A DNA stretch of 64,000 nt from Candidatus Adlerbacteria bacterium. Lineage in GTDB: Bacteria > Patescibacteriota > Minisyncoccia > Phycocordibacterales > SBAW01. Numbering within the stretch: position 1 is the first letter of the stretch; each line of letters starts with the position of its first letter. The stretch spans positions 129,073 through 193,072 of the forward strand of contig JAQBRA010000002.1 of NCBI GenBank assembly GCA_028286685.1. Reading direction: 5' to 3'. The position numbers and the translations under genes were made by a program. Positions 588 to 53,297 of this stretch are shown piece by piece. The notes beneath the pieces are model-generated. The model had not been told where the DNA came from. It was given only the letters and a program-made list of their open reading frames with translations, and did not search any database.

Positions 588-799
588 TTGTACGAACTTA
601 TGCAGAGTAGCCCATTTCCGGCGTTTTTTCAAACCGGCCCAGCGCTACAGAAGAAACACAGACTTCAGCAAACCTTAATCTTATTCCCGTATTCTGCGTG
701 AGTGCATCAGAAAAGCAGCAGGCGGTTACGCGGGCAAATCTGAAGGAGGCTTCAGTAAGCAGAGAAGTTAGAGGCACGTCTACTTATACACCCACACCC

Positions 800-1945
800 A
801 TGAGCAACCAAAATTCCCTTTCTATAGTTATCCCCGCCTACAATGAGGCCCGCCGCCTGCCGGCTACGCTTGCAAGCGTATATGAGTACCTGCGCTCGGG
901 TGCCTTTCCTGCGCACGAGATAATCGTCGTCGACGACGGCTCCAGCGACAAGACCGTCGAGGTGGCTGAGGAATTTGCCAACCGTCGCGATATAAAAAAT
1001 GTGCGGATAATCCGCGCGCCCCGCAACCAGGGAAAGGGCGCGGCCCTGGCCCGCGGCATACTTGCAAGCCACGGCGAGTTCGTGCTCTGCACCGACGCCG
1101 ATCTTTCCACTCCCATAGGCGAAATGGACAAGCTTCTGCGCCGAGTGCGCCGCGACGGCTTTGACGTGGCTATCGGCTCGCGCAACGTGGCAGAAAGCAT
1201 CGTCACCAAAAAGCCCTGGTACCGCTCAATACTCAGCGGCACCTCCAACCTGCTGATCCGCCTGGTCTTGGGCCTCCCCTTCCGCGACACGCAGTGCGGC
1301 TTCAAGCTCTACCGCCGCGAGGCTGCACTGTCCCTGTTTAGGAATCTCCACTTGCCGCGCTTCAGCTTTGATTTTGAGGTACTCTCCCGCGCCAAGACTA
1401 AAGGACTGCGCGTCGCCGAGGTGGGCGTGCGCTGGGAGCATTCGGACTTTACCACGGTGCGCACGCGCGATGTTTTCCAGTGCCTCGTCGATGTGTTCCG
1501 CATCCGCTTCGGCCTTACCGGAGACGCCTCAATGGCGCAGCTCGGGCGCTTTATGACGGTGGGCGTCGTCAATACCGCCATCGACGCTGGCCTATATTTC
1601 ATGCTCACCCGATTTACCGCCGCGTTTGCGGGAGACATTGTCGCGGCAAAGTTCTTCTCATTCCTGGCGGCCACCGTATCGAGCCTGCTTCTCAACCGCC
1701 GCTGGACCTTCGGCGTGCGTGCACCGCTTACATTTGCCGAGGTCGCGCGCTTTTACGCGACCGTCTCCGCCAGCATGGCGCTCAACGTGAGCCTTATGTA
1801 TATGTTCGTGCACGGTCTTGGCATCCACGACCTCCAGGCGCTCCTGCTTACCACCCTGCTTACCTTCGGGCTCAACTACACGCTGTCGCGCCTCTGGGTA
1901 TTCCCCAAGAAAGACGCCGAGCTTGCTGCGGGCATGAACCTATAA
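800..1945 (+). CDS. Polyprenyl-phosphate glycosyltransferase (GT2, DPM/DPG-synthase-like) fused to a GtrA-type flippase domain
   Basis: SIVIPAYNE, VVDDGSSD, NQGKG, TDADLS, DTQCGFK, FSFDFE motifs; C-terminal four-helix GtrA pattern (RFMTVGVVNT...LNRRWTF...RLWVF); ATG 800 preferred to GTG 698. Confidence 0.88.
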   Translation: MSNQNSLSIVIPAYNEARRLPATLASVYEYLRSGAFPAHEIIVVDDGSSDKTVEVAEEFANRRDIKNVRIIRAPRNQGKGAALARGILASHGEFVLCTDADLSTPIGEMDKLLRRVRRDGFDVAIGSRNVAESIVTKKPWYRSILSGTSNLLIRLVLGLPFRDTQCGFKLYRREAALSLFRNLHLPRFSFDFEVLSRAKTKGLRVAEVGVRWEHSDFTTVRTRDVFQCLVDVFRIRFGLTGDASMAQLGRFMTVGVVNTAIDAGLYFMLTRFTAAFAGDIVAAKFFSFLAATVSSLLLNRRWTFGVRAPLTFAEVARFYATVSASMALNVSLMYMFVHGLGIHDLQALLLTTLLTFGLNYTLSRLWVFPKKDAELAAGMNL

Positions 1946-1948
1946 CCT

Positions 1949-2473
1949 ATGAAAAAACTGCTTATACCCGTTATGTTTCTGGGCCTGCTCTTTGCCGCCA
2001 CTCCCGCGCTTGCCCAGGAGCGCGGGGAAAACCGCGGAAGCGGCTCGGTAGTGCAGTCTATTTTCGATTCACTTGAGCGCGCGCGCGAGTCGCGACAGGA
2101 GCGCGCACGCCAGGCACAAGAAGAGCAGCGGGCATCGCAACAGGAAGTTGCAGCAGACGGGCAGACTGCAACCTCTACGGCCACTTCAACTTCAACTGTG
2201 GCCGCAGCCACCACAACCGCCGCTGCCGCTCGGCCGGACGCTCCAGTTGCACAACAGCCTGCGGCCGCAGCGATCTCAGCGCTGGGCGACCAGAACGGGA
2301 CGCCGCAGGCGGGCGTCTATGAAGCAGAGGGCCTCTCTGCCGCGCAGATGCGGATACTGCTGACTGCCGCACTGGCAATGGCGGTGGGCGGATTCTTATT
2401 AGTGGAGCGCGGGACTCTCGAGCGCCTCCTTGCCGCCGGCCCTGCGCGCCGCACGCACTCCTTACGCGTATGA
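1949..2473 (+). CDS. Secreted Ala/Thr/Gln-rich protein with C-terminal membrane anchor
   Basis: Signal peptide (ALA|Q), low-complexity T/A linker, C-terminal hydrophobic helix and basic tail; coupled to both neighbours. Confidence 0.7.
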   Translation: MKKLLIPVMFLGLLFAATPALAQERGENRGSGSVVQSIFDSLERARESRQERARQAQEEQRASQQEVAADGQTATSTATSTSTVAAATTTAAAARPDAPVAQQPAAAAISALGDQNGTPQAGVYEAEGLSAAQMRILLTAALAMAVGGFLLVERGTLERLLAAGPARRTHSLRV

Positions 2474-3690
2474 GATTAAAGTTTGTCGGATACCTCCTGC
2501 TCGGAGCGGCGCTGCTTGTGCTGCTTGCAGTCATATACCTAAGCTCCGACCGGAGCCGGATCCCACTCATGTTCTCCCCTACGCAAATCCTGGGAGCCAC
2601 CTGGGGACACTACAAGGAGGAGTACCTTGAGCCCGGCACCAATCGCACGCTCGACAAGCAGCGCGAGAATGTCACCACATCCGAGGGCCAAAGCTACACG
2701 ATGCTCCGGGCCGTATGGCAGGGCGACAAAGAGACCTTTGACGCATCCTGGACGTGGACCAAAGACAACCTGCTGCACGACGATGACTGGCTCTTTGCCT
2801 GGATCTTTGGCAAACGCAGCGACGGCTCTTACGGCGTCTTGGCAGAGCGCGGCGGCAATTCGACCGCAAGCGATGCAGACCAGGATATCGCGCTCGCGCT
2901 CATATTCGCCTACGCGCGCTGGCAGGACCCGGCCTACATAGGAGAGGCGCGCCGCATACTCGACGATATCTGGGAGAAAGAAGTGATCATGATACAGGGA
3001 AAGCCCTATCTCGCCGCCAATGATCTTGAGAAATTTTCCTCCTCTGAAACGGCGATCATCAACCCTTCTTATTTGGCTCCGTACGCGTACCGGATATTTG
3101 CGGTTGTTGACTCCAATCATGCCTGGGAAGGCTTGATCGACACGTCCTACGATGTTATCGGGCGATCGATCGAGCTGCCGCTTGGCGCACCGGAAAGCGC
3201 GGGGCTTGCACCGGACTGGGTGCGCATCAACAAGGCAACCGGCGAGCTTACGCCAACTGGCGGGGACTTGACCACCAACTTCGGCTACGACGCGCTGCGC
3301 ATGCCTTGGCGCCTTGCGCTCGATTACCAATGGAACAAGGAAGAACGCGCCCGCGAGACGCTCTCCCGCATGAGCTTCCTCTCGCGGCAATGGAAAGAGC
3401 GCGGCACGCTCAGCACTACCTACAGTCACGACGGCACAGTCTTGGGCGACTACGAGACCCCCGCCTTCTACGGCGGAGTTATCGGCTACTTTATAGTCGC
3501 GGACAAGGCGGCAGCGAGAAACGTCTATGAGCAGAAACTCGGAAGCCTCTACAATCCGGATACCAACGACTGGAAGCAGCGCCTTTCCTATTACGACGAT
3601 AACTGGGCCTGGTTCGGCATCGGACTCTATCACAACCTCCTCCCCAATCTTTCCGACAATTTGCCGGCAAGCGCTTTCCTGACGCCTTAA
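2470..3690 (+). CDS. Glycoside hydrolase family 8 endoglucanase (BcsZ-like), membrane-anchored
   Basis: TTSEGQSYTM, ASDADQDIA, NPSY, YDALR motifs; N-terminal TM helix. Confidence 0.9.
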   Translation: MRLKFVGYLLLGAALLVLLAVIYLSSDRSRIPLMFSPTQILGATWGHYKEEYLEPGTNRTLDKQRENVTTSEGQSYTMLRAVWQGDKETFDASWTWTKDNLLHDDDWLFAWIFGKRSDGSYGVLAERGGNSTASDADQDIALALIFAYARWQDPAYIGEARRILDDIWEKEVIMIQGKPYLAANDLEKFSSSETAIINPSYLAPYAYRIFAVVDSNHAWEGLIDTSYDVIGRSIELPLGAPESAGLAPDWVRINKATGELTPTGGDLTTNFGYDALRMPWRLALDYQWNKEERARETLSRMSFLSRQWKERGTLSTTYSHDGTVLGDYETPAFYGGVIGYFIVADKAAARNVYEQKLGSLYNPDTNDWKQRLSYYDDNWAWFGIGLYHNLLPNLSDNLPASAFLTP

Positions 3691-3737
3691 GCCGCCCTTC
3701 ATGCGCGGCCGCGTATGGTAGCGCTTGTAACCACCCT

Positions 3738-5306
3738 ATGAATAATCACGAACAACCAATTGATCTGCGCACCGCGTTTCTGAAAACCGGCTCTTCGCGC
3801 GCGCTCTTTGCGGCAAATGCGGCACTAGCCGTCCTGTACTTCTGCGTGCTCACCTTCTTCTTCAAGCACGGCAATCCCCTGCTCTGGGGCCTCCTGGTCG
3901 CGGGCGAAGTGTTCCATCTCTGGCAGGTGCTCACGTTCCTCTACACGGTCTGGGACACCGAGCACAAGGCGCGCTTCGATGCCGCACTGGTCCCCGCAGT
4001 CGACGTGTTTATCACAGTAGCCGGCGAGCCCGTTTCGGTCGTCGAAGAGACCGCGCGCGCGGCCAGGAATATGCGCTACGCGGGAGCCTTCTCTGTCCAT
4101 ATACTTAACGACGGCTATGTCGCCAAAAAGGACAACTGGCGCGAGATTGAATCCATGGCTGCGCGCGTGGGCGTGCACTGCATCACTCGTACGGTTCCTG
4201 GGGGTGCCAAGGCCGGCAACATTAACAATGCGCTCAAGCTCACCGTCGCTCCCCTGGTAGCCATATTCGACGCGGACCATGTCCCGCACGAGGATTTCCT
4301 GGAAAAGACGGTCGGGTATTTTGCTGACGAGAAAATGGGCTTCGTGCAGACGCCGCAGTTTTACAAGAATCACGGCGCCAATTACCTGGCCCAGGCATCG
4401 TGGGAGCAGCAGGAGCTTTTCTTCGGCCCCATCTGCAAGGGAAAAAATCGGCACAACGCCGCGACCATGTGCGGAACCAACATGGTTATCAGCCGCGAGG
4501 CGCTTGAGCGCGTCGGGGGCATGTCAACCGAGTCGATCGCCGAAGATTTCGTAACGGGGCTCTTCATGCACTCACTGGGATTAAAGTCGTATTACGTAGG
4601 AGAAGTCCTGGCAGAAGGCTTGGCGACCGAGGACTTCCTCTCCTACTCCAAGCAGCAATTCAGGTGGGCTCGCGGCTCGCTCGATGTTATCTTCCGCTAC
4701 AATCCGCTTTTGCGGCGCGGGCTTACGTTCGCGCAGCGCATCCAGTATCTGGCGTCGGCGAGCTTCTACCTGTCGGGCACGGTGGTATTCATCGACCTTA
4801 TGCTGCCGCTGGCGTTCCTCTATACGGGCGCGGTACCGCTTGAGATCAGCGGCATGTTCTTGGCAGCGGTATTCCTCCCCTACATGTTCCTGACGCTCTA
4901 CTGCGTGCAGCGCAGCTCCAACTTTACGTTTACGTTCGCGTCGCTGGCGCTGTCGATGAGCGCGTTTACGATCCACCTCAGCGCCCTGTGGGCCGCCATG
5001 ACGGGAAAGAAGTCGGCCTTCGTCATAACCTCCAAGGAAGCCGTGTCGGGCAACTTTATCAGGCTCGCTGCGCCGCACATAGCCTATGTCGCCATAGCGG
5101 CCTTCGGCATCTTAGTGGCGCTCAACCGCGAGGGATTTTCGGCATCGCTCGTCAACAACATAGCCTGGGTGGCGCTCAACGCCGCGGTGTTTTACCCCTA
5201 CATAAAGGCAGCTCGCGGCGACGCGCACCCGGCAGCGGCAGCCGAGCCCGGTTCTGTGCCCCTATCGTCTCTTATAAAACCTAAGCACAAAGTTCATGCG
5301 CAGTAA
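3738..5306 (+). CDS. Processive GT2, cellulose synthase catalytic subunit-like (no PilZ domain)
   Basis: DVFIT..GEP, LNDG, GAKAGNINN, FDADHVP, QTPQ, CGTN, AED, QQFRW (QxxRW); 2 N-terminal plus several C-terminal TM helices. Confidence 0.88.
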   Translation: MNNHEQPIDLRTAFLKTGSSRALFAANAALAVLYFCVLTFFFKHGNPLLWGLLVAGEVFHLWQVLTFLYTVWDTEHKARFDAALVPAVDVFITVAGEPVSVVEETARAARNMRYAGAFSVHILNDGYVAKKDNWREIESMAARVGVHCITRTVPGGAKAGNINNALKLTVAPLVAIFDADHVPHEDFLEKTVGYFADEKMGFVQTPQFYKNHGANYLAQASWEQQELFFGPICKGKNRHNAATMCGTNMVISREALERVGGMSTESIAEDFVTGLFMHSLGLKSYYVGEVLAEGLATEDFLSYSKQQFRWARGSLDVIFRYNPLLRRGLTFAQRIQYLASASFYLSGTVVFIDLMLPLAFLYTGAVPLEISGMFLAAVFLPYMFLTLYCVQRSSNFTFTFASLALSMSAFTIHLSALWAAMTGKKSAFVITSKEAVSGNFIRLAAPHIAYVAIAAFGILVALNREGFSASLVNNIAWVALNAAVFYPYIKAARGDAHPAAAAEPGSVPLSSLIKPKHKVHAQ

Positions 5307-6819
5307 TACGGTTTTCTGGCAGCTAGGCGGGCTTATGGCGCTCGTCGCGGCACTGGCCTTTTTCTTTTTCTTCCAGCAGTCGATGCGGCTCGACGAGTCG
5401 CAGAGCCTCTGGCAGACGGGGCGCAGCGCCCCGGAGATACTGACTATCGTCGCGCAGGACGTGCACGTGCCGCTCTATCATGAGCTCCTCCATTTCTGGC
5501 GCGTCTTCGTGGGCGACAGCGTTGAGGCGAGCCGGCTCCTGTCGCTGATATTCTACATGGCGTCCATACCGGCGCTCTACTTCCTCGGCCGGATCGCCTA
5601 TGGCCGCCAAGCCGGGCTTTTTGCCGCAACGCTCCTCGCCATATCCCCGTTTATGAATTGGTACGGCAGCGAGATACGCATGTACACGCTGTTTACCTTT
5701 TTGGTGGTACTCAACCAGTACTTCTTTATCCGCATACTCAAGTCAGCCGAAGAGACGAGAGAGAGGACCGAGCGCGCGTGGGCGCTCTACGCGCTCACCG
5801 CCCTCCTGGGCATATTCACACACTACTTCTTCTTCCTAACGCTCGCGGGCCAGGCGCTCTTTTTCGTCCTGCGCCGCGGGCTCTTTCCCCAAGGATCGTT
5901 CAAGAAATTCTTCGGAATCCTGCTCGTACTTGCGGTCATGTTCGCGCCATGGGTGTGGTGGGTCTTCCATCAGGGTCAGGCGAACCAGGCCTCGCCGGTG
6001 CTCCAGAGCCCCACCTCCATCAACTTCTTTAGCGCATTCTCGCAGTTTATCTTCGGATTCCAGACAGACCATCTCAACACCATCGTGCTGTCCCTATGGC
6101 CCATTACGGTGCTTTTGGGCTTCTTGGCGCTGCGCAGAACCCGCGCGCTTCAGCCGGAAACTTTATATTTCATGATCAGCGTATTTCTGTCGATGGCGCT
6201 GGCATTCATCGTAAGCGTGCTCATCGAGCCCGTGTTCGTCTCGCGCTACCTCATCTTTACCGTACCGTCGCTCTATCTCCTTTTGGGGGCACTCATATCG
6301 GCTTACCCGCCGCGCATGGCTTCCTTTGCCCGCTACGCAATAATCGGCCTCATGCTTGCAGGCCTCGCTATCGAAATGTTCAGCAATTCCACCCCGGTCA
6401 AGGAAAACTACCGCGAGGCGGCGCAGTTTCTGACTGAGAATGCGGCGGCGCAGGATATCGTGATACTCTCGGCACCCTTTACCGTCTATCCGGTCGAGTA
6501 CTACTACCGCGGGCCGGCTCCCATTGCTACGCTCCCCAATTGGGACCGCTACGCGTTCGGACCGCTGCCCGCCTATTCCGCAGATGCAATGCCCCAGGAA
6601 GTTACGGATACGACAAAAAATTACCAATACGCATGGCTCCTGCTTTCCTACGACCAGGGCTACGAGGAAGACATGCGTATTTATTTCGATGAGCATTTCG
6701 AGCGCGTCGACATGCGCGAATTCTCTCCGGGACTCGCGCTCTGGGTCTACAAGATACGCTACGACACGCCGCTTGCCGGCGAGGACTTCGTCCCCGGCAC
6801 CACTACCCCAGAGCAATAG
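5296..6819 (+). CDS. GT-C fold membrane glycosyltransferase (GT39/ArnT/PMT_2-like)
   Basis: RLDE motif after first TM, DVHVPLY, EIRMY, THY, SRY motifs, about 11 TM helices plus an external C-terminal domain. Confidence 0.85.
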   Translation: MRSNTVFWQLGGLMALVAALAFFFFFQQSMRLDESQSLWQTGRSAPEILTIVAQDVHVPLYHELLHFWRVFVGDSVEASRLLSLIFYMASIPALYFLGRIAYGRQAGLFAATLLAISPFMNWYGSEIRMYTLFTFLVVLNQYFFIRILKSAEETRERTERAWALYALTALLGIFTHYFFFLTLAGQALFFVLRRGLFPQGSFKKFFGILLVLAVMFAPWVWWVFHQGQANQASPVLQSPTSINFFSAFSQFIFGFQTDHLNTIVLSLWPITVLLGFLALRRTRALQPETLYFMISVFLSMALAFIVSVLIEPVFVSRYLIFTVPSLYLLLGALISAYPPRMASFARYAIIGLMLAGLAIEMFSNSTPVKENYREAAQFLTENAAAQDIVILSAPFTVYPVEYYYRGPAPIATLPNWDRYAFGPLPAYSADAMPQEVTDTTKNYQYAWLLLSYDQGYEEDMRIYFDEHFERVDMREFSPGLALWVYKIRYDTPLAGEDFVPGTTTPEQ

Positions 6820-6828
6820 GGGTAAGCA

Positions 6829-6910
6829 AAAACCTTTCAGAAAATAGTCTGGCCCGAGAGCGCTCCAAGCGCGATACGGGAGATCCGAGGACTTTTTCTG
6901 AAAGGTTTTT
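6829..6910. terminator. Long inverted repeat between convergent GT-C and GH6 genes (bidirectional terminator-like)
   Basis: AAAACCTTTCAGAAAA ... TTTTCTGAAAGGTTTT arms around a ~50-nt interior. Confidence 0.55.
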
Positions 6911-6921
6911 GTGGAGCTTGT

Positions 6922-8412
6922 TTACTTAACTAGAGAGAGCGCGTACTCGGGCCACCAGGTGCCGGCCGAGGGGCCGCCGTTGCATGCGCCGTCGGATTCG
7001 CCCGGAGTCTTTACCCAGAGATAGGCGTCTATGAGGCTCTGGCCGGTAGCTGCAGACGGACTCTGGCCCGTCTTGCGTCCCCACGGATTGCACCATTCGC
7101 TATTGCCGCCGTTGCCGTTGCGGGCGGTATCGATGACGAAGTGCTTGCCGCCGAGCGCTTGGGACACCTTCGTGCCGTAAGCGGACTCGTCCGATGTCGT
7201 ATTGAAGTTGGACACATTGAGCGAGAAGCCGTCGGCCTTCTGTATGCCCGCCTTCTCTAGCTGCGCAGCCATATCCTTGGCGTCGATCCAGCCCGAGTGG
7301 CCGGCATCGATGTACACTTTTGTATTGCTGTTGCTCTTGAGTATGGAGACTGCCGCGGCGAGCATGTCGGCGCGCTCTCGCTGGCCCGCGCCAGAGAGGC
7401 ACGCATTGCCCGCGAGCGCATCAGGCTCGAGTATGACGACTGCCGAGGCCGAGCCAATGCCGCGCGCAAACGCGCCGATCCATTTCGTATAGGCATCCTT
7501 GCTGGAAGATCCTCCCGCAGAATAACCGCCACAGTCGCGGCCTGGAATATTGTAGGCGACTAGGACCGGCGCAGCGCCTTCCTTTTTTGCCGCATTTACC
7601 ACCTGGGCCGCATCGCTCTGCACATCCTGATTCCAGCCGCCAAACCAGGAAGCAGTCGGCTGCGCGGCCAGATAGCTCATTTTCCTGGCATCATCCGGGC
7701 GATTCTGGCTCCACGAGGCTGCCTGTGCTTTTGCAGAAGAATTTGCATTGACGTAGAAGGTCAGGTCTTTGAGCGGATTTTTGCTTACGACCGGCACGGT
7801 AACCTGTTGGGCCGGCTGCGAAGGCATCGGCTGAGACTGCCCTGCGCTCGAGGTTGCCGCTTGCACCGCGCTGGACGTCGCCACAACAGCTGCCACAGGC
7901 GGCACCGGCACGGATGCTTGCCCGTTCTCTACAAAGATATCGACGCTCTTCTGCCCGATGATCGTATCGTTTTGCCGCGCAATGAAGTTTATTTTGTAGG
8001 GACCCGCTCCCTTCCAGTTCCAGCCGGACACGTCCACACCAGACTCCTTGTGGGGCGCATCAGTGTAGCTGTTGTCCATCCAATTCCATGAGCCGCCGTC
8101 CACCTGCCAGAACATCTCATAGGTACCGGGGTCGACGCCGTCTAGAGCGGCCTTAAACGGCTGGGAGCCGCTGAGGCGCGCGTCGTTCTTGGGCCACCAG
8201 GCACTGACGCCGGAGCTTGCCACCGCGGCCTGCGAAACGCTGAGCGATACATTAATTGGCAGCAGGGTGATATTAGTCAGTATGACACCGAGGAATACCG
8301 CCTTGAAGAATCCATAGCGGCGCGCACGCAAGCGGGATGCCGCAGCGGTTGCCGTGCTGATAATTTTATTATTAAGAGCTTTAAGAGAACGTATTTCTTT
8401 TTCTACTTTCAC
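6922..8412 (-). CDS. Glycoside hydrolase family 6 cellulase with N-terminal TM and a Trp-rich accessory domain
   Basis: YNIPGRDCG, ILEPDAL, YIDAGHSGW, NVSNF, IDTARNG, WCNP, WVKTPGESDG.C motifs. Confidence 0.92.
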   Translation of the reverse strand: MKVEKEIRSLKALNNKIISTATAAASRLRARRYGFFKAVFLGVILTNITLLPINVSLSVSQAAVASSGVSAWWPKNDARLSGSQPFKAALDGVDPGTYEMFWQVDGGSWNWMDNSYTDAPHKESGVDVSGWNWKGAGPYKINFIARQNDTIIGQKSVDIFVENGQASVPVPPVAAVVATSSAVQAATSSAGQSQPMPSQPAQQVTVPVVSKNPLKDLTFYVNANSSAKAQAASWSQNRPDDARKMSYLAAQPTASWFGGWNQDVQSDAAQVVNAAKKEGAAPVLVAYNIPGRDCGGYSAGGSSSKDAYTKWIGAFARGIGSASAVVILEPDALAGNACLSGAGQRERADMLAAAVSILKSNSNTKVYIDAGHSGWIDAKDMAAQLEKAGIQKADGFSLNVSNFNTTSDESAYGTKVSQALGGKHFVIDTARNGNGGNSEWCNPWGRKTGQSPSAATGQSLIDAYLWVKTPGESDGACNGGPSAGTWWPEYALSLVK

Positions 8413-9159: not shown

Positions 9160-9389
9160 CGGTCAAATCGGCTCGTCAGCGATTCGCTTGCAGTCCTGCC
9201 TCGCGGTTTTGCTGAACGGGACTCGTCGCAGACACAATAAGACGGGACTCGGTCACAGATAATTTTGCAGAGCAAAATTATCTGTGACCCCGCCTCAGAA
9301 ACGCTTCCCCGGAGCGTTTCTTCCGGCCTTCGAGTCCCCGTTGCCCGGCAACCAAAAAGCATCCCCGAAGGGATGCTTTTTACTCGCTG
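9160..9389 (-). repeat. tRNA-3'-associated structured element (Asp copy, with a degenerate second core)
   Basis: Terminator, antisense T-arm (9329-9341), core GGCCGGAAG-hairpin-GAGGCGGGGTCAC-hairpin-GTGACC, direct GAGTCCCGTCT (9240-9250). Confidence 0.85.
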
Positions 9390-9463
9390 CGCGAGAGACG
9401 GGACTCGAACCCGCAACCTCCGCCGTGACAGGGCGGCGCTCTAACCAGTTGAGCTACTCCCGC
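9390..9463 (-). tRNA. tRNA-Asp(GTC)
   Basis: Cloverleaf GCGGGAG..CTCTCGC-G, anticodon loop CTGTCAC. Confidence 0.95.
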
Positions 9464-10424: not shown

Positions 10425-10496
10425 AGCGGGGTGGAGCAGTAGTAGCTCGTCAGGCTCATAACCTGAAGGTCGCAGGTGCAATTCCTGCCCCCGCAA
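10425..10496 (+). tRNA. Initiator tRNA-fMet(CAT)
   Basis: AGCGGGGTGGAGCAG start with 1:72 mismatch, anticodon arm TCAGG-CTCATAA-CCTGA. Confidence 0.9.
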
Positions 10497-10671
10497 CACG
10501 AATGAAAGAGTCCCGCACAAGCGGGATTTTTTCGTGTTGCGGGAGAAAGATGCTCAAGCATCTTTCGTGCAGGAATTGCAGGCCGCAGCGTTGCTGTGCA
10601 TTTGCACAGCCGCGAGGCGGGGTCGCAAGCGAGCTTGGCGACGGCCAAGGTCGACTTGTGACCGATTCCTG
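10497..10671 (+). repeat. tRNA-3'-associated structured element (fMet copy)
   Basis: Terminator, antisense acceptor (10531-10543), hairpin, antisense T-arm GCAGGAATTGCA (10569-10580), core GGCCGCAGCG..CGCGAGGCGGGGTCGC..TGTGACC, direct GATTCCTG. Confidence 0.88.
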
Positions 10672-40634: not shown

Positions 40635-40666
40635 GCGGAGAGGGAGGGATTCGGTCACACATAAAA
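40635..40666 (-). repeat. Distal direct repeat of tRNA-Ser 3' end joined to element end (TGTGTGACC|GAATCCCTCCCTCTCCGC)
   Basis: 40635-40653 identical to 42464-42482. Confidence 0.9.
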
Positions 40667-40751
40667 TACTGCTGTATTTTTGCACGGGTCGGGCTTGGCA
40701 TATTGCAAAACCTGTGTTTTTTCAGTACTCTCACTGCGAACAAGAGTTCTT

Positions 40752-41327
40752 ATGGAAGCAGGGAGTTCCGACATGAAACAGCAGGATACCGGGGACCGCC
40801 GAAGGCTCGTAGCCGAAGCCGCCCAAAAGCAGCTAACCGACGGCACCTGGCCACAGGTAATGAAAGTGTTCGGATACCAGAATCCGAAAGCGCCGCGAGT
40901 GCCTGACGAGGAATTCGCCCGGCTCAAGGCGCTCTATGAGCAGGCGGCCTGCCCAAACCTGGCGGCATTCGTCGACCTGGTGCGCTTCAAGGAAAAAGAG
41001 CGCGACGTAACGATGTCGTTCAACCTCAGCCTGCGCTTGCGCCTCGCCTCCGGCGCAGATAATGCCGCACTGATCCTCTCCTCCCCCGACATCATGGTCG
41101 GAACGCGCTACGGAATCGAAGGAGCTGCGGTCTGGCTCAAGAACTTTTTCGAAGCGGTACCGGATTCTGCCCCGGAATCAGTCCAATTGATGGACAAGAT
41201 CTTCGGCGAGGCGGTCGAGTTCCTCCAAGGCACGCCGCGCCAAGCGACGCTCGAGGACATGGTCAAGTTTGCGATTACCGGCGAGGGAGATATTTTCGAG
41301 CCCGCTGACAAGCCACTGAAGCACTAA
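40752..41327 (+). CDS. Hypothetical protein (cargo between tRNA-Ser repeats)
   Basis: Long ORF with its own terminator hairpin at 41333-41360; start 40752 or 40773. Confidence 0.7.
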   Translation: MEAGSSDMKQQDTGDRRRLVAEAAQKQLTDGTWPQVMKVFGYQNPKAPRVPDEEFARLKALYEQAACPNLAAFVDLVRFKEKERDVTMSFNLSLRLRLASGADNAALILSSPDIMVGTRYGIEGAAVWLKNFFEAVPDSAPESVQLMDKIFGEAVEFLQGTPRQATLEDMVKFAITGEGDIFEPADKPLKH

Positions 41328-41380
41328 CACTATGCCGCCGACTCGATAGAGTCGGCGGCATTTTCTTTTTTTATACACCC

Positions 41381-41406
41381 AGGGAAGGATTCGGTCACAC
41401 ATAAAA
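41381..41406 (-). repeat. Internal copy of element end plus partial tRNA-Ser 3' end
   Basis: 25/26 identical to 40641-40666. Confidence 0.9.
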
Positions 41407-41475
41407 AATCAAAGAAACGGCACGGCCCTGGGGTGGGTCGTGCCGTTTTGGTTTCTGCCGGGCTTACCTTTAGCC

Positions 41476-41685
41476 CTACTCGTCGTCAGCCGGCTGAGGT
41501 TCGGGTTTGAGGTTCTGCATGACCCATTTGCGGTCTTCCTCTGACAGCTCGCGGGTAATTTGACCCCACATGACATTGGGGTACATGTCCCGCACGATAG
41601 TGCGCAATTGCGTGCCGTCTTTGGCCGCAATGGCGTCCTTGTACATATCCGCCTCAACAGGCGTCGAGTCTCTCGGGCCACTCAT
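41476..41685 (-). CDS. Small hypothetical protein (69 aa, cargo)
   Basis: AAGGAGG Shine-Dalgarno before ATG 41685; terminator at about 41415-41449. Confidence 0.65.
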   Translation of the reverse strand: MSGPRDSTPVEADMYKDAIAAKDGTQLRTIVRDMYPNVMWGQITRELSEEDRKWVMQNLKPEPQPADDE

Positions 41686-41695
41686 AGGTTCCTCC

Positions 41696-42313
41696 TTATG
41701 CGATTTGAATTGAGCGGAAGCGTTGTGCCCCCGTCCACTCATCACCATCGGCCTTCGGGTAGTCGTACCAGCCGCGCGCCGACCAGTTGTCAACTTTGTG
41801 GCAGAACGCAGCCAGTTCGTTCATCACCCGATGCGTTGATGAGTAGTCCTTGTACTCACCCTCGACATAGGTGAAGCCGTTGAGCTGCATTGGCGTCAAC
41901 ACCAAGCCGTATTCCGCGAGCTTGTCCTCACGGAACTTTTTGAACTCTTCCTTAGTCGAAAGACCGTCGCGGTTGGAAACCTGGCCATCCTCGACCAGTA
42001 TCCGCCACGGTTTCTCCAGGTCGTGGAGGAAGAAGACGAGTAGTGCGTCCGAGAGCGAGAACGGTAACGGCCGGCCAAACGCCCTGTCGAAGGCATAGAG
42101 GTGCCGGGCATAGTTCATGCCATCGACCACGTGGTCGATATAGCCGCCATCCCACGTGTGGTGATTATGAGTCGAGCCTCGTGCCCGCTCGAACAGGGCA
42201 CGATGGTCGGCTAAGATACGCTTGCAGATGCTCCCATTTGACTCGTCGATGAGGTCCAGCAGAGCCTCTATCGGGAGATAGTTGAGGGGAATATACGCCT
42301 CTTTCATAGTCAT
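41696..42313 (-). CDS. HD-domain phosphohydrolase (YhaM-like HD motif, cargo)
   Basis: ARGS..NHH.W.GGY.DHV ... LHDLEK ... D pattern. Confidence 0.7.
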   Translation of the reverse strand: MTMKEAYIPLNYLPIEALLDLIDESNGSICKRILADHRALFERARGSTHNHHTWDGGYIDHVVDGMNYARHLYAFDRAFGRPLPFSLSDALLVFFLHDLEKPWRILVEDGQVSNRDGLSTKEEFKKFREDKLAEYGLVLTPMQLNGFTYVEGEYKDYSSTHRVMNELAAFCHKVDNWSARGWYDYPKADGDEWTGAQRFRSIQIA

Positions 42314-42365
42314 CCCTTTCTAAAGAACTGCCCGCACTATGCCAAAAATAAGGATAAAAAGAAAG

Positions 42366-42463
42366 CCGCGGTCCGGCTTTCGAATCCCTCACGCAAAGTG
42401 CCCCACACTTTGCTCCTCTCCGCTAACAAAAATGGCGCCTCATTGGCGCTCATTCTTGTACTA
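42366..42463 (-). repeat. tRNA-3'-associated structured element, proximal half (Ser copy)
   Basis: Hairpin, antisense acceptor (42415-42425), inserted hairpin, antisense T-arm (42379-42390), then AGCCGGACCG core start. Confidence 0.85.
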
Positions 42464-42464
42464 G

Positions 42465-42555
42465 CGGAGAGGGAGGGATTCGAACCCTCGATACGGATAT
42501 TACCCCGTATGGGGGATTAGCAATCCCCTGCTTTCAGCCGCTCAGCCACCTCTCC
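42465..42555 (-). tRNA. tRNA-Ser(GCT)
   Basis: GGAGAGG acceptor, loop TTGCTAA, long variable arm, G73. Confidence 0.95.
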
Positions 42556-48649: not shown

Positions 48650-48721
48650 GGGCGCGTAGCTCAGTGGTAGAGCCGTCGTCTTATACACGACTGGTCGCAG
48701 GTTCGATCCCTGCCGCGCCCA
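48650..48721 (+). tRNA. tRNA with TAT anticodon (tRNA-Ile(UAU))
   Basis: GGGCGCG acceptor, anticodon arm GTCGT-CTTATAC-ACGAC, T-loop TTCGATC, A73. Confidence 0.85.
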
Positions 48722-48864
48722 CAAAAGACACTAGCACCTGCCCTGCGGCAGGTGTTGTGCTTTTGTGGGAGGGGTTTTTCTTATCCACTCATTAAAATTT
48801 AAGGATTAGGTGCTACTATCTAATTTTAGAGATCTCCTGTTCCACTGCATACAGCGAGGCGCCC

Positions 48865-52738: not shown

Positions 52739-53113
52739 GGGGATGCCAGGCTTAGACAATGAGAATGCTTGCTTGATGCGCGAAGTAGCAGTGGGAATCT
52801 GCTTAAAAATATCCCAAAACATAACTGCAAAAACAGTTGCATCGCCGTACTTTTCGGCGAACCAGTTCGCTTTCGCTTACGCCAAAGCGTAACTGGCATC
52901 CTCCTATCCTCGCCTGATGGATAGGTCCGGGTGTTATAAACCGGGCTATAGCTGGTGGCCGTAATCCATCCTCCAGCCGAACAATGGATTTGCAGATATA
53001 CAGTATTTGGTTTGCTTTACAGCTGTATACCTAAAGAAACTCAAAGCAAACTACACTTCGTAGAAGCTCTCGCAGCACCTTATTGCACGGCGGTTCAATT
53101 CCGCCCATCTCCA
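52739..53113 (+). ncRNA. ssrA: tmRNA
   Basis: GGGGATG/CATCTCC-A acceptor with G3.U70, T-arm GGCGGTTCAATTCCGCC, tag frame 52827-52892 AKTVASPYFSANQFAFAYAKA*, next to smpB. Confidence 0.93.
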
Positions 53114-53297
53114 CAAGTAGCACAGCCCGCCTTTCGGCGGGTTTTGTGCTACTTGTGGAAGAAATGGGAGCAAGCGAAGCTTGCGGCGGAATTGAACGGG
53201 CGCAGCGATGTTTTGCACTGGCAAAACCGCGAGCCGGGGTCGCGAGCGACTTTGCTGACGAGCAAAGTCGACTGGTGACTCAATCGCCCATCTCCAC
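53114..53297 (+). repeat. tRNA-3'-associated structured element (tmRNA copy)
   Basis: Terminator, antisense acceptor, GCGAAGC hairpin, antisense T-arm (53185-53197), core GGGCGCAGCG..CGCGAGCCGGGGTCGC..GGTGACT, direct CGCCCATCTCCAC (53285-53297). Confidence 0.9.

Follow-up and report, generated by a model that had tools for sequence, protein, structure and literature searches.

Integron attC sites fold from one strand, conserving their unpaired bases while their tips vary, and are found in arrays at one site with one-gene cassettes. Transfer of the IS608 type is not known to duplicate target DNA, and derivatives of the IS200/IS605 family that carry no open reading frame are the PATEs. For islands at tRNA genes Williams is said, in 2002, to have placed the crossover at the start of the T loop. 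Site choice by IS608 depends on a guide, according to the relevant portions of two papers (PMC5934647, PMC5027513), and in those of the first, long-guide retargeting of this element is something that had to be engineered (PMC5934647). Integrative elements carry their own working gene end, as the pertinent part of a further source describes (PMC4383910).

Here we describe a unit without genes of its own, about 130-200 bases long, which lies at the 3' ends of genes in Patescibacteria and Elusimicrobiota. The reading that we favour, at a probability of roughly 55%, is of a non-autonomous, DNA-guided integrative mini-element which would move as folded single-stranded DNA with the help of an enzyme acting in trans.

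Anatomy and distribution of the units

The window (the whole stretch of 64,000 nucleotides analysed, from a Candidatus Adlerbacteria bacterium) had initially been annotated as showing one order of parts behind four stable-RNA genes: the RNA end, a terminator-like hairpin, an antisense copy of that end, a shared core and a direct copy. ARAGORN and Rfam agree with the annotated places of the four RNA genes, and all four loci bear out this order, with complete cores at fMet, tmRNA and Asp (Table 1). The core consists of two hairpins: P1 has a 3-bp foot, a GNA/GA internal loop and a variable upper stem, while P2 has a conserved G-T pair, a bulged A and a variable upper stem, its 3' foot forming the right junction. 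A further hairpin, H0, interrupts the antisense arm, with its foot 13-14 nt upstream of the core in 38 of 83 copies of the T-loop class. The folds at fMet, tmRNA and Asp have z scores of -11.8, -10.8 and -11.5, respectively, and none of 200 dinucleotide shuffles folds as well. Contigs from run X1, a possible source of the assembly, span the fMet, Asp and Ser units without differences. No RNA run listed contained this genome, and RNA contigs matched only tRNA and conserved genes, a result uninformative about expression.

The direct copy had been described as restarting in the T loop. It does so here one base earlier than thought, at C56 (T55 in tmRNA), and that same point, inside the RNA gene, is where the unit begins; a second class restarts at the acceptor end. 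At tmRNA the crossover lies one base 5' of the usual place and the guide is shifted by one base to match. The Ser core is interrupted by cargo, as had been noticed, but the unit extends further than supposed: the core stops after the left stub of P1, and the unit continues to position 40635 as two cassettes, each closed by the 3' part of P2, the right end of a core, and a displaced tRNA tail. The Atlas clusters nearest to the 205-aa ORF of the first cassette are automatically named putative HD-domain protein. Elsewhere in the window, positions 698-8412 hold two family-2 glycosyltransferases, a GH8, a PMT-type transferase and a GH6, and resemble a cellulose-type polysaccharide locus.

Table 1. 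Positions of RNA genes, units, displaced tails and cargo in the window.
Feature	Position	Strand	Remarks
tRNA-fMet(CAT)	10425..10497	+	Predicted crossover 10478/10479, T loop; ARAGORN, Rfam
fMet, whole unit	10479..10662	+	Replacement tRNA 3' end, terminator-like hairpin, antisense arm, core
fMet, terminator-like hairpin	10508..10529	+	Tip of long arm, T run after it; a simple scan scored the minus strand only
fMet, antisense to acceptor strand and trailer	10533..10543	+	
fMet, hairpin H0	10545..10566	+	At acceptor/T-stem boundary of antisense arm
fMet, T-arm guide	10569..10580	+	12 nt; its final two bases are paired to the dinucleotide just 5' of the crossover
fMet, core	10581..10662	+	P1, 2-nt linker, P2; covariance model, 95 bits
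fMet, displaced and decayed tRNA tail	10663..10671	+	T-loop position 57 unlike the gene
tRNA-Asp(GTC)	9389..9463	-	Predicted crossover just before 9407
Asp, arm	9329..9381	-	Terminator-like hairpin 9354-9381, short hairpin, T-arm guide 9329-9341
Asp, core	9252..9328	-	Covariance model, 48 bits
Asp, displaced tails	within 9161..9251	-	Tail 9240-9251, second tail fragment 9214-9225
Remains of older core beside Asp	9161-9211	-	Plain profile, E=0.15
tmRNA	52739..53114	+	Predicted crossover just before 53095
tmRNA, arm	53115..53197	+	Long hairpin with terminator-like tip, acceptor antisense 53150-53168, H0 53170-53184, guide 53185-53197
tmRNA, core	53198..53279	+	Covariance model, 94 bits
tmRNA, displaced tail	53280..53297	+	2-nt deletion near junction
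tRNA-Ser(GCT)	42464..42555	-	Predicted crossover just before 42482
Ser, arm	42372..42463	-	Terminator-like hairpin, acceptor antisense 42415-42425, H0 42393-42413, guide 42379-42390, P1 left stub 42372-42378
Ser, cassette 1	41381..42371	-	Core right end 41393-41406, partial displaced tail 41381-41393; also a short ORF
Ser, cassette 1 ORF, 205 aa	41696-42313		No Pfam or PADLOC match
Ser, cassette 2	40635..41380	-	3' part of P2 40653-40685, full displaced Ser tail 40635-40653
Ser, cassette 2 sole ORF	40680-41327	+	Opposite strand to cassette; no Pfam or PADLOC match
tRNA-Ile(TAT), arm	48720..48769	+	Fifth locus; acceptor-end class, guide in register, core absent

The 260 bases behind each of 46 ARAGORN calls were read across the 698-kb Adlerbacteria genome, and the same module was seen behind many of them; a tRNA-Glu call on contig C6 was taken as false and left out, leaving 45 RNA genes. 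Alignment of 17 cores gave the two-hairpin structure and, from it, a covariance model. In these 17 copies 93.9% of 524 cells are paired and 25 of the 32 pairs have changed on both sides; covariation is 0.56 against 0.19 in shuffled and 0.08-0.13 in slid alignments, the slide control being lenient because the structure was drawn from the same copies. The model is specific: it found nothing up to E=1 in 927 kb of a genome of the same genus (G013), and on the reversed Adlerbacteria genome the best match of a plain profile had E=0.2. G013 is 98% complete; it has 13 resolvase-domain matches, no cores, and no match to DprA, YraN, ComM or ComEC.

The Adlerbacteria genome holds 22 cores (the model list has 23 entries, one being a reverse-strand echo of the Asp copy), of which 20 lie on the same strand within 250 bases behind 18 of the 45 tRNA/tmRNA genes. 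One of the remaining two has an arm and tail that match tRNA-Asn and appears to have been pushed off by a later island across a contig gap, an adjacency that we infer; the other has a tRNA-type arm at a tRNA-like sequence that ends a membrane-protein ORF (C3:130519). Scanning beyond this genome revealed a family much larger than the four loci first noticed. Cores are present in 34 of 41 genomes of the order, where a single genome has as many as 37, in 7 of 150 further genomes sampled throughout the phylum (30 candidates being scored in each), and in 11 of 41 Elusimicrobiota genomes, several of which have 5-13. The anticipated linkage to tRNA/tmRNA 3' ends is strong in the Adlerbacteria genome (20/22) and recurs in the order (79/83), in distant Patescibacteria (23/25), among named GTDB matches (30/35) and at Elusimicrobiota loci (26/28). 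Nor is the element confined to stable-RNA genes, since it also occurs at the 3' ends of the protein genes efp and topA. Among the first 80 loci of a GTDB scan (3 of 64 parts), model-confirmed copies bore the labels Paceibacteria, Parcubacteria, Kaiserbacteria, Adlerbacteria, Nomurabacteria, Taylorbacteria, Moraniibacteriota, 'Saccharibacteria', Patescibacteria and plain 'bacterium', along with one Elusimicrobia genome.

Plasmid and phage records gave no match. In viral contigs one pattern found nothing, and the model confirmed none of 58 and one of 22 pattern loci; this single locus reads as host DNA beside a prophage. The core lies outside the named RNA families too: no Rfam family, RttR and group I and II introns included, matched it in the window at gathering scores, and at 15 genome loci searched to E=1 only tRNAs reached a gathering score.

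That there is no mobile element here, merely terminators with local duplications or errors of assembly, is hardly credible. Exact tandem doubles at four loci of genome G216 could indeed be assembly products and were set aside as proof of activity, but a covarying core in two phyla, its patchy presence by tRNA and by genome, a fixed register, the cargo cassettes and a clean negative genome all speak against this account.

Several loci deserve separate mention. A second, unrelated type of core, which the model does not score, has the same layout of antisense arm, folded core and displaced tail with a longer guide; it was found behind tRNA-Gln(CTG) of G000:C5 (L016) and also at L459, L141, L119 and L115. 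A core lies on the antisense strand of an apparent 5S rRNA fragment (L198:981-1043), and a core-like match flanked by an inverted repeat lies just past the stop of a polynucleotide-phosphorylase-like gene (L131, G067). Apparent anticodon-loop introns accompany the element at L110 (G018 tRNA-Asn) and L204 (tRNA-Phe). Locus L322, which reads as Elusimicrobia host DNA, combines a prophage end, a DGR-like reverse transcriptase, a displaced tRNA-Ser tail and three stacked cores.

Guide register and the origin of the gene end

Each unit runs from a fixed base inside the gene 3' end to the foot of P2, and the base that follows opens the displaced copy. This base tracks the target when the latter has G or T in that position (L100, L104 and tmRNA in the window), which sets the crossover just before it. 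Three crossover positions were tabulated, of which one precedes C56 of the T loop and the other two are at the acceptor end, with 3 of 108 model matches left out (two duplicates and one reverse-strand echo). At all three positions the stretch leading into the core can base-pair with the target on both sides of the crossover. What the arm matches 3' of the crossover belongs to the unit itself and for that reason requires no tailoring; the two bases on the 5' side lie outside the unit.

In the register test each arm was placed without these two outside bases, and the pairing of the two was then asked, using only the first unit behind each RNA and leaving out 25 arms that could not be placed. The outside bases pair in 41 of 45 units of the acceptor-end class (shuffled mean 6.7, maximum 16 in 10,000), spanning nine different dinucleotides, and in 78 of 81 of the T-loop class (shuffled mean 56.8, maximum 65), while the restart triplet is predicted in 25/45 and 65/81, respectively (shuffled 11.4 and 40.2); the shuffles ignore the kinship of copies, so significance is overstated. 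The effect is present in every set with more than two members. Its edge is sharp: in the acceptor class pairing is found in 34 of 35 units at -2 and -1, in 1 of 35 at -3 and at chance level beyond. The guide ends two bases 5' of the crossover and is followed by one unpaired base and then P1. The target has C at +1 in 119 of 126 cases. Guides track the odd T loops of Asp, Cys, fMet and tmRNA, and T-loop units often show, as a recurring variant, G-A pairs opposite positions 57-58. Non-standard T loops, with G or C at position 55 or 54, were observed at window positions 10425-10497, in G000 tRNA-Cys and at L232, L280, L281 and L305.

The antisense segment had been proposed as a guide, with the flanking segments following the adjacent RNA. 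The pairing of the outside bases agrees with the latter, and the fixed register of both classes argues for the former; judged from sequence, the guide probably sets the crossover.

The protein-gene targets bear on where the duplicated gene end comes from. At efp (L146, G183) both ends encode the same last residues, and their three differences are all synonymous or stop-to-stop; at topA (L219) both encode a homologous C terminus, with 33 identical bases followed by divergence. Such ends are homologues with synonymous differences, hence the unit brings its own working gene end. The two T loops at fMet are likewise not identical. Copying during insertion, which had been put forward earlier, therefore fails as a general origin, and these are very probably integrative units that replace gene ends. 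In some genomes the duplicate extends 11-22 bases past the tRNA and, in Elusimicrobiota, through the terminator and up to H0; we read these over-long duplicates as older units shorn of guide and core after re-insertion at the same site, although copying at insertion fits as well. Changes in the displaced tail concentrate on the fourth and fifth bases past the junction (11 and 12 of 52; 0-5 at other positions), in the stretch with which the guide would pair, and may block re-excision. Neither an excision circle nor an empty site was seen.

It is conceivable, if unlikely, that only H0, guide and core move, the gene end being a target duplication of variable length made by nicking and priming, through reverse transcription or DNA template switching, and the antisense arm a product of that synthesis. 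An exact right junction with a variable left extent would follow naturally, and repeats in distant Patescibacteria that are perfect from C56 as far as the CCA end, duplicates reaching past the tRNA, a spacer common to Gln(CTG) and Ser(CGA) across two genomes from the same family (L135, L137) and cores common to several targets would all be accommodated. Such copying does not explain the synonymous differences at efp and topA or the T-loop differences between gene and displaced tail, nor arms that, read by eye, look target-conserved across genomes (Cys, Ser-GCT, Trp, Glu). Moreover, no reverse transcriptase was matched in G000, G018 or G228, and the enzymes of G120 and G216, which look DGR-like, are encoded at a distance from cores.

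Returning to the integrative unit, its modules appear to have separate histories. None of 60 pairs of cores at the same target in different genomes reaches at least 85% identity, as against 12 of 343 pairs at different targets in the same genome, and the nearest neighbour of a core is from the same genome in 18 of 71 cases (shuffled 9.8; 22 of 2000 shuffles as high). Arms, by eye, look conserved by target and cores do not follow it, which indicates that arm and core modules are exchanged. A non-autonomous element with one core at many targets, as first suggested, is supported. The gap between P1 and P2 is where cargo and additional hairpins tend to be inserted, as though the two formed a left and a right end; at the Ser locus of G018 a whole core is followed by a 2.9-kb cassette, closed in the same way as those of the window and with a Shedu SduA gene inside.

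Substrate and enzyme

The RNA-like strand folds better in 176 of 176 cores, a result that names the strand and not the polymer. Among 294 core loops there are 25 cGNNAg and seven cGNAg, which we take to be DNA-type, and no UNCG and five GNRA, which we take to be RNA-type; for the upstream hairpins it is the other strand whose loops would suit DNA better (78/184). Loop usage favours single-stranded DNA over RNA, and we consider the former the more plausible substrate by a fair measure. An element acting as RNA seems very unlikely. Read-through RNA might fold so that the arm sequesters the pre-tRNA end, as the initial annotation had offered as an alternative, or the core might be a small self-splicing ribozyme, its guide resembling an internal guide sequence, that spreads by reverse splicing. 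It is the RNA-like strand that folds, with a conserved G-T pair and a GA-rich internal loop, the arm as RNA disrupts the tRNA fold in a folding computation, and the targets are ends of highly expressed genes. Yet the RNA gene and the antisense arm are separated by a terminator-like hairpin and its T run, which with the loop counts would weaken the sequestration idea; there is no Rfam match, several core-rich genomes have no reverse transcriptase, and splicing onto decayed displaced tails would give no working tRNA.

The enzyme was sought by a motif scan of genome ORFs, by Pfam searches for tyrosine, serine, Y1, reverse transcriptase and IS110 enzymes, and by applying the core model around the genes found. 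In keeping with the initial remark that the window has no integrase, transposase or reverse transcriptase, no recombinase was found among its 47 proteins scanned. The Adlerbacteria genome (94.5% complete) has one XerC/D-like tyrosine recombinase and no match to Y1_Tnp, resolvase, recombinase, reverse transcriptase or IS110. The initial suggestion to look for a recombinase, HUH or reverse transcriptase gene that co-occurs with the core yielded none, the Y1, serine-recombinase, reverse transcriptase and IS110 leads all lacking a link. Among relatives, Y1_Tnp is matched in 21 of 34 with cores and in 4 of 7 without, and none of nine Y1 loci examined carries a core. The IS110 transposase (PF02371) was matched in none of five core-rich genomes. 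Clustering of ORFs near 160 cores gave no recurring enzyme family, no copy with P1 separated from P2 was found in 401 genomes with the one subfamily pattern tried, and a pattern for the right end of cargo found four metagenomic loci with no enzyme. RAYT-like HUH genes flanked by short palindromes of their own were noted at L154, L156 and L157, two of them beside gap. An enzyme of HUH type is possible, though we hold it doubtful; a rare helper may exist elsewhere.

Conventional double-strand recombination by a visiting integrase, such as the large serine recombinases common at tRNA genes here, would need no guiding, the arm being a spare attachment site or having been perfected later by template switching. 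Gene restoration with displaced fragments is the signature of integrase islands in the portion of the literature that treats them (PMC4383910), template switching homogenises inverted repeats according to the relevant part of another source (PMC8604942), and resolvase-domain genes occur in 21 of 41 genomes, with a tRNA or tmRNA at 16 of 30 loci examined. We nevertheless regard this explanation as improbable. No core was found at the 30 recombinase loci within the approximately 3.4 kb fetched, which often left the far ends uncovered; 8 of 15 genomes with at least eight cores have no resolvase match, and the correlation is not significant (Spearman -0.19, p=0.24). At tRNA-Gln (TTG) of G018 (L459:1900-6700) a large-serine-recombinase island that reads into the tRNA and possesses a displaced fragment of its own is nested between this tRNA and an older mini-element, whose core is different and which has been pushed 4.5 kb away; the island is thus a separate, later insertion. 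One core serves many crossover positions, all seemingly set by the guide, and passive correction would not end so abruptly at -2. At L007:980-1020 and the start of contig C6 there is a decayed T-loop fragment resembling the one beside the recombinase island of G018, which suggests a recombinase-less island with a large surface-protein gene at tRNA-Asn.

Subtracting the core-free G013 from the genes common to G000 and G018 left 144 candidates, of which 28 were scanned; these include ComM, DprA, ComEC, a ComF-like gene, YraN, RNase H and a GIY-YIG protein. DprA is present in 39 and YraN in 33 of 41 genomes, core-free ones included, so that competence is at most permissive; the subtraction used one genome only.

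Proposed mechanism and relation to known systems

In the favoured reading, a unit would leave as a single-strand circle in which the foot of P2 is joined to the crossover base, and would integrate as folded single-stranded DNA, its antisense arm serving as the guide that sets the crossover for the trans-acting enzyme. The arm would anneal to the target's non-template strand where this is exposed, with H0 dividing more than 20 bp of pairing into two short helices, and exchange of one strand at the junction base would insert the unit. Insertion would restore the gene from the unit's own copy and push the old end outward, where it would decay. New specificity could arise when a unit is, rarely, inserted at a near-match, takes up the gene end found there and has its arm corrected in cis; cores would recombine between units. 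The closest chemistry may be HUH (Y1) strand transfer and, second, that of an IntI-like tyrosine recombinase acting on folded DNA.

If the guide sets the crossover, this would be natural long-guide, retargetable insertion without a break in both strands, and it would explain how a minimal genome can accumulate accessory and defence genes at its tRNA ends with no integrase dedicated to each. More tentatively, the units could form a programmable DNA-guided insertion system of Patescibacteria and Elusimicrobiota, with a universal scaffold of 80 bases and a cis guide of 5-25 bases, which would exchange one strand at any matching site before C, restore the gene and on occasion bring cargo, the driving activity being that of a recombinase not yet recognised, of a housekeeping enzyme put to new use or of the folded nucleic acid itself. 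The question thus raised is which enzyme reads the scaffold; were it a conventional integrase, the element would become a variant of integrase-less tRNA islands.

Like integron attC sites, the units fold from one strand, conserve their unpaired bases, vary at the tips, form arrays at a single site and have one-gene cassettes. They differ in that an R-box pair occurs in none of 190 cores, that no IntI gene was found beside cores and that the target is a gene end, apparently chosen by pairing. MITEs are set apart by matching 6-nt ends in only 2 of 190 cores, the ends of whole units having been judged by eye, and retroelements by the lack of a linked reverse transcriptase, the loci of the G120 and G216 enzymes being without a core. 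The IS110 bridge RNA resembles the unit in its modular target-binding segment beside a conserved fold; here, unlike there, the guide is in cis and would pair with a single strand, and the transposase was not matched in the core-rich genomes searched. REP/REPIN sequences with RAYT (TnpA-REP) are likewise short, folded, extragenic and numerous, with a G-N-A-G tetranucleotide at the foot of a bulged hairpin and an enzyme in trans, as the sections of PMC6006769 on these features describe. Among the cores, in contrast, GTAG, which with GTGG is the REP form of this tetranucleotide, occurs in 3 of 190 (GGAG in 101, GCAG in 54), there is no REPtron and arms are target-matched; none of four RAYT-like loci has a core, the palindromes that flank the RAYT-like genes of relatives differ, and the Adlerbacteria genome has no RAYT.

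Closer still are tRNA/tmRNA islands of the Islander type and their integrase-less derivatives, the CIMEs, in which the target gene is also restored, a displaced and often damaged fragment lies at the far end, and tandem stacking and occasional cargo are met with (Shedu SduA in the G018 Ser cassette). Here, however, no unit holds an integrase, cores do not follow targets, one core serves many targets and three crossover positions, an antisense arm stands in fixed register, and the T-loop crossover lies before C56 instead of at the start of the loop.

From IS200/IS605 elements the units depart in a guide of 5 to more than 20 nt that spans the crossover, in place of a tetranucleotide 5' of the site, in natural retargeting to more than 20 targets, and in the absence of tnpA between the two hairpins in any copy seen. 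They carry and replace a gene end, leaving a direct repeat of it where IS608-type transfer would leave no target duplication. A preference such as that of IS608 for the lagging-strand template is not clear here: a bias toward genes co-oriented with replication lacks significance in G018 (21/33 against 5/13, p=0.19) and in the Adlerbacteria genome (11/28 against 7/17, p=1), local skew being noisy. There are also likenesses. Strand-specific hairpins with a guide at the 5' foot that pairs with the cleavage or target site are described in the pertinent part of PMC5934647, and the units, as far as their sequence tells, have a guide in this place; the same part of that paper reports for IS608 retargeting by change of guide, a preference for C at +1 and targeting extended by extra pairing (PMC5934647). 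In open-licence PMC and bioRxiv literature, supplements aside, no description of the element was found. Since the unit lacks a defining feature of each of IS608, tRNA islands, REP, attC, MITE and IS110, it stands apart from every family considered and is likely a new kind of mobile element, one that would choose its insertion site by base pairing, a novelty that we base on these missing features and on the literature, not on mechanism. It is best read as joining targeting like that of IS200/IS605 to gene restoration like that of tRNA islands, while belonging to neither.
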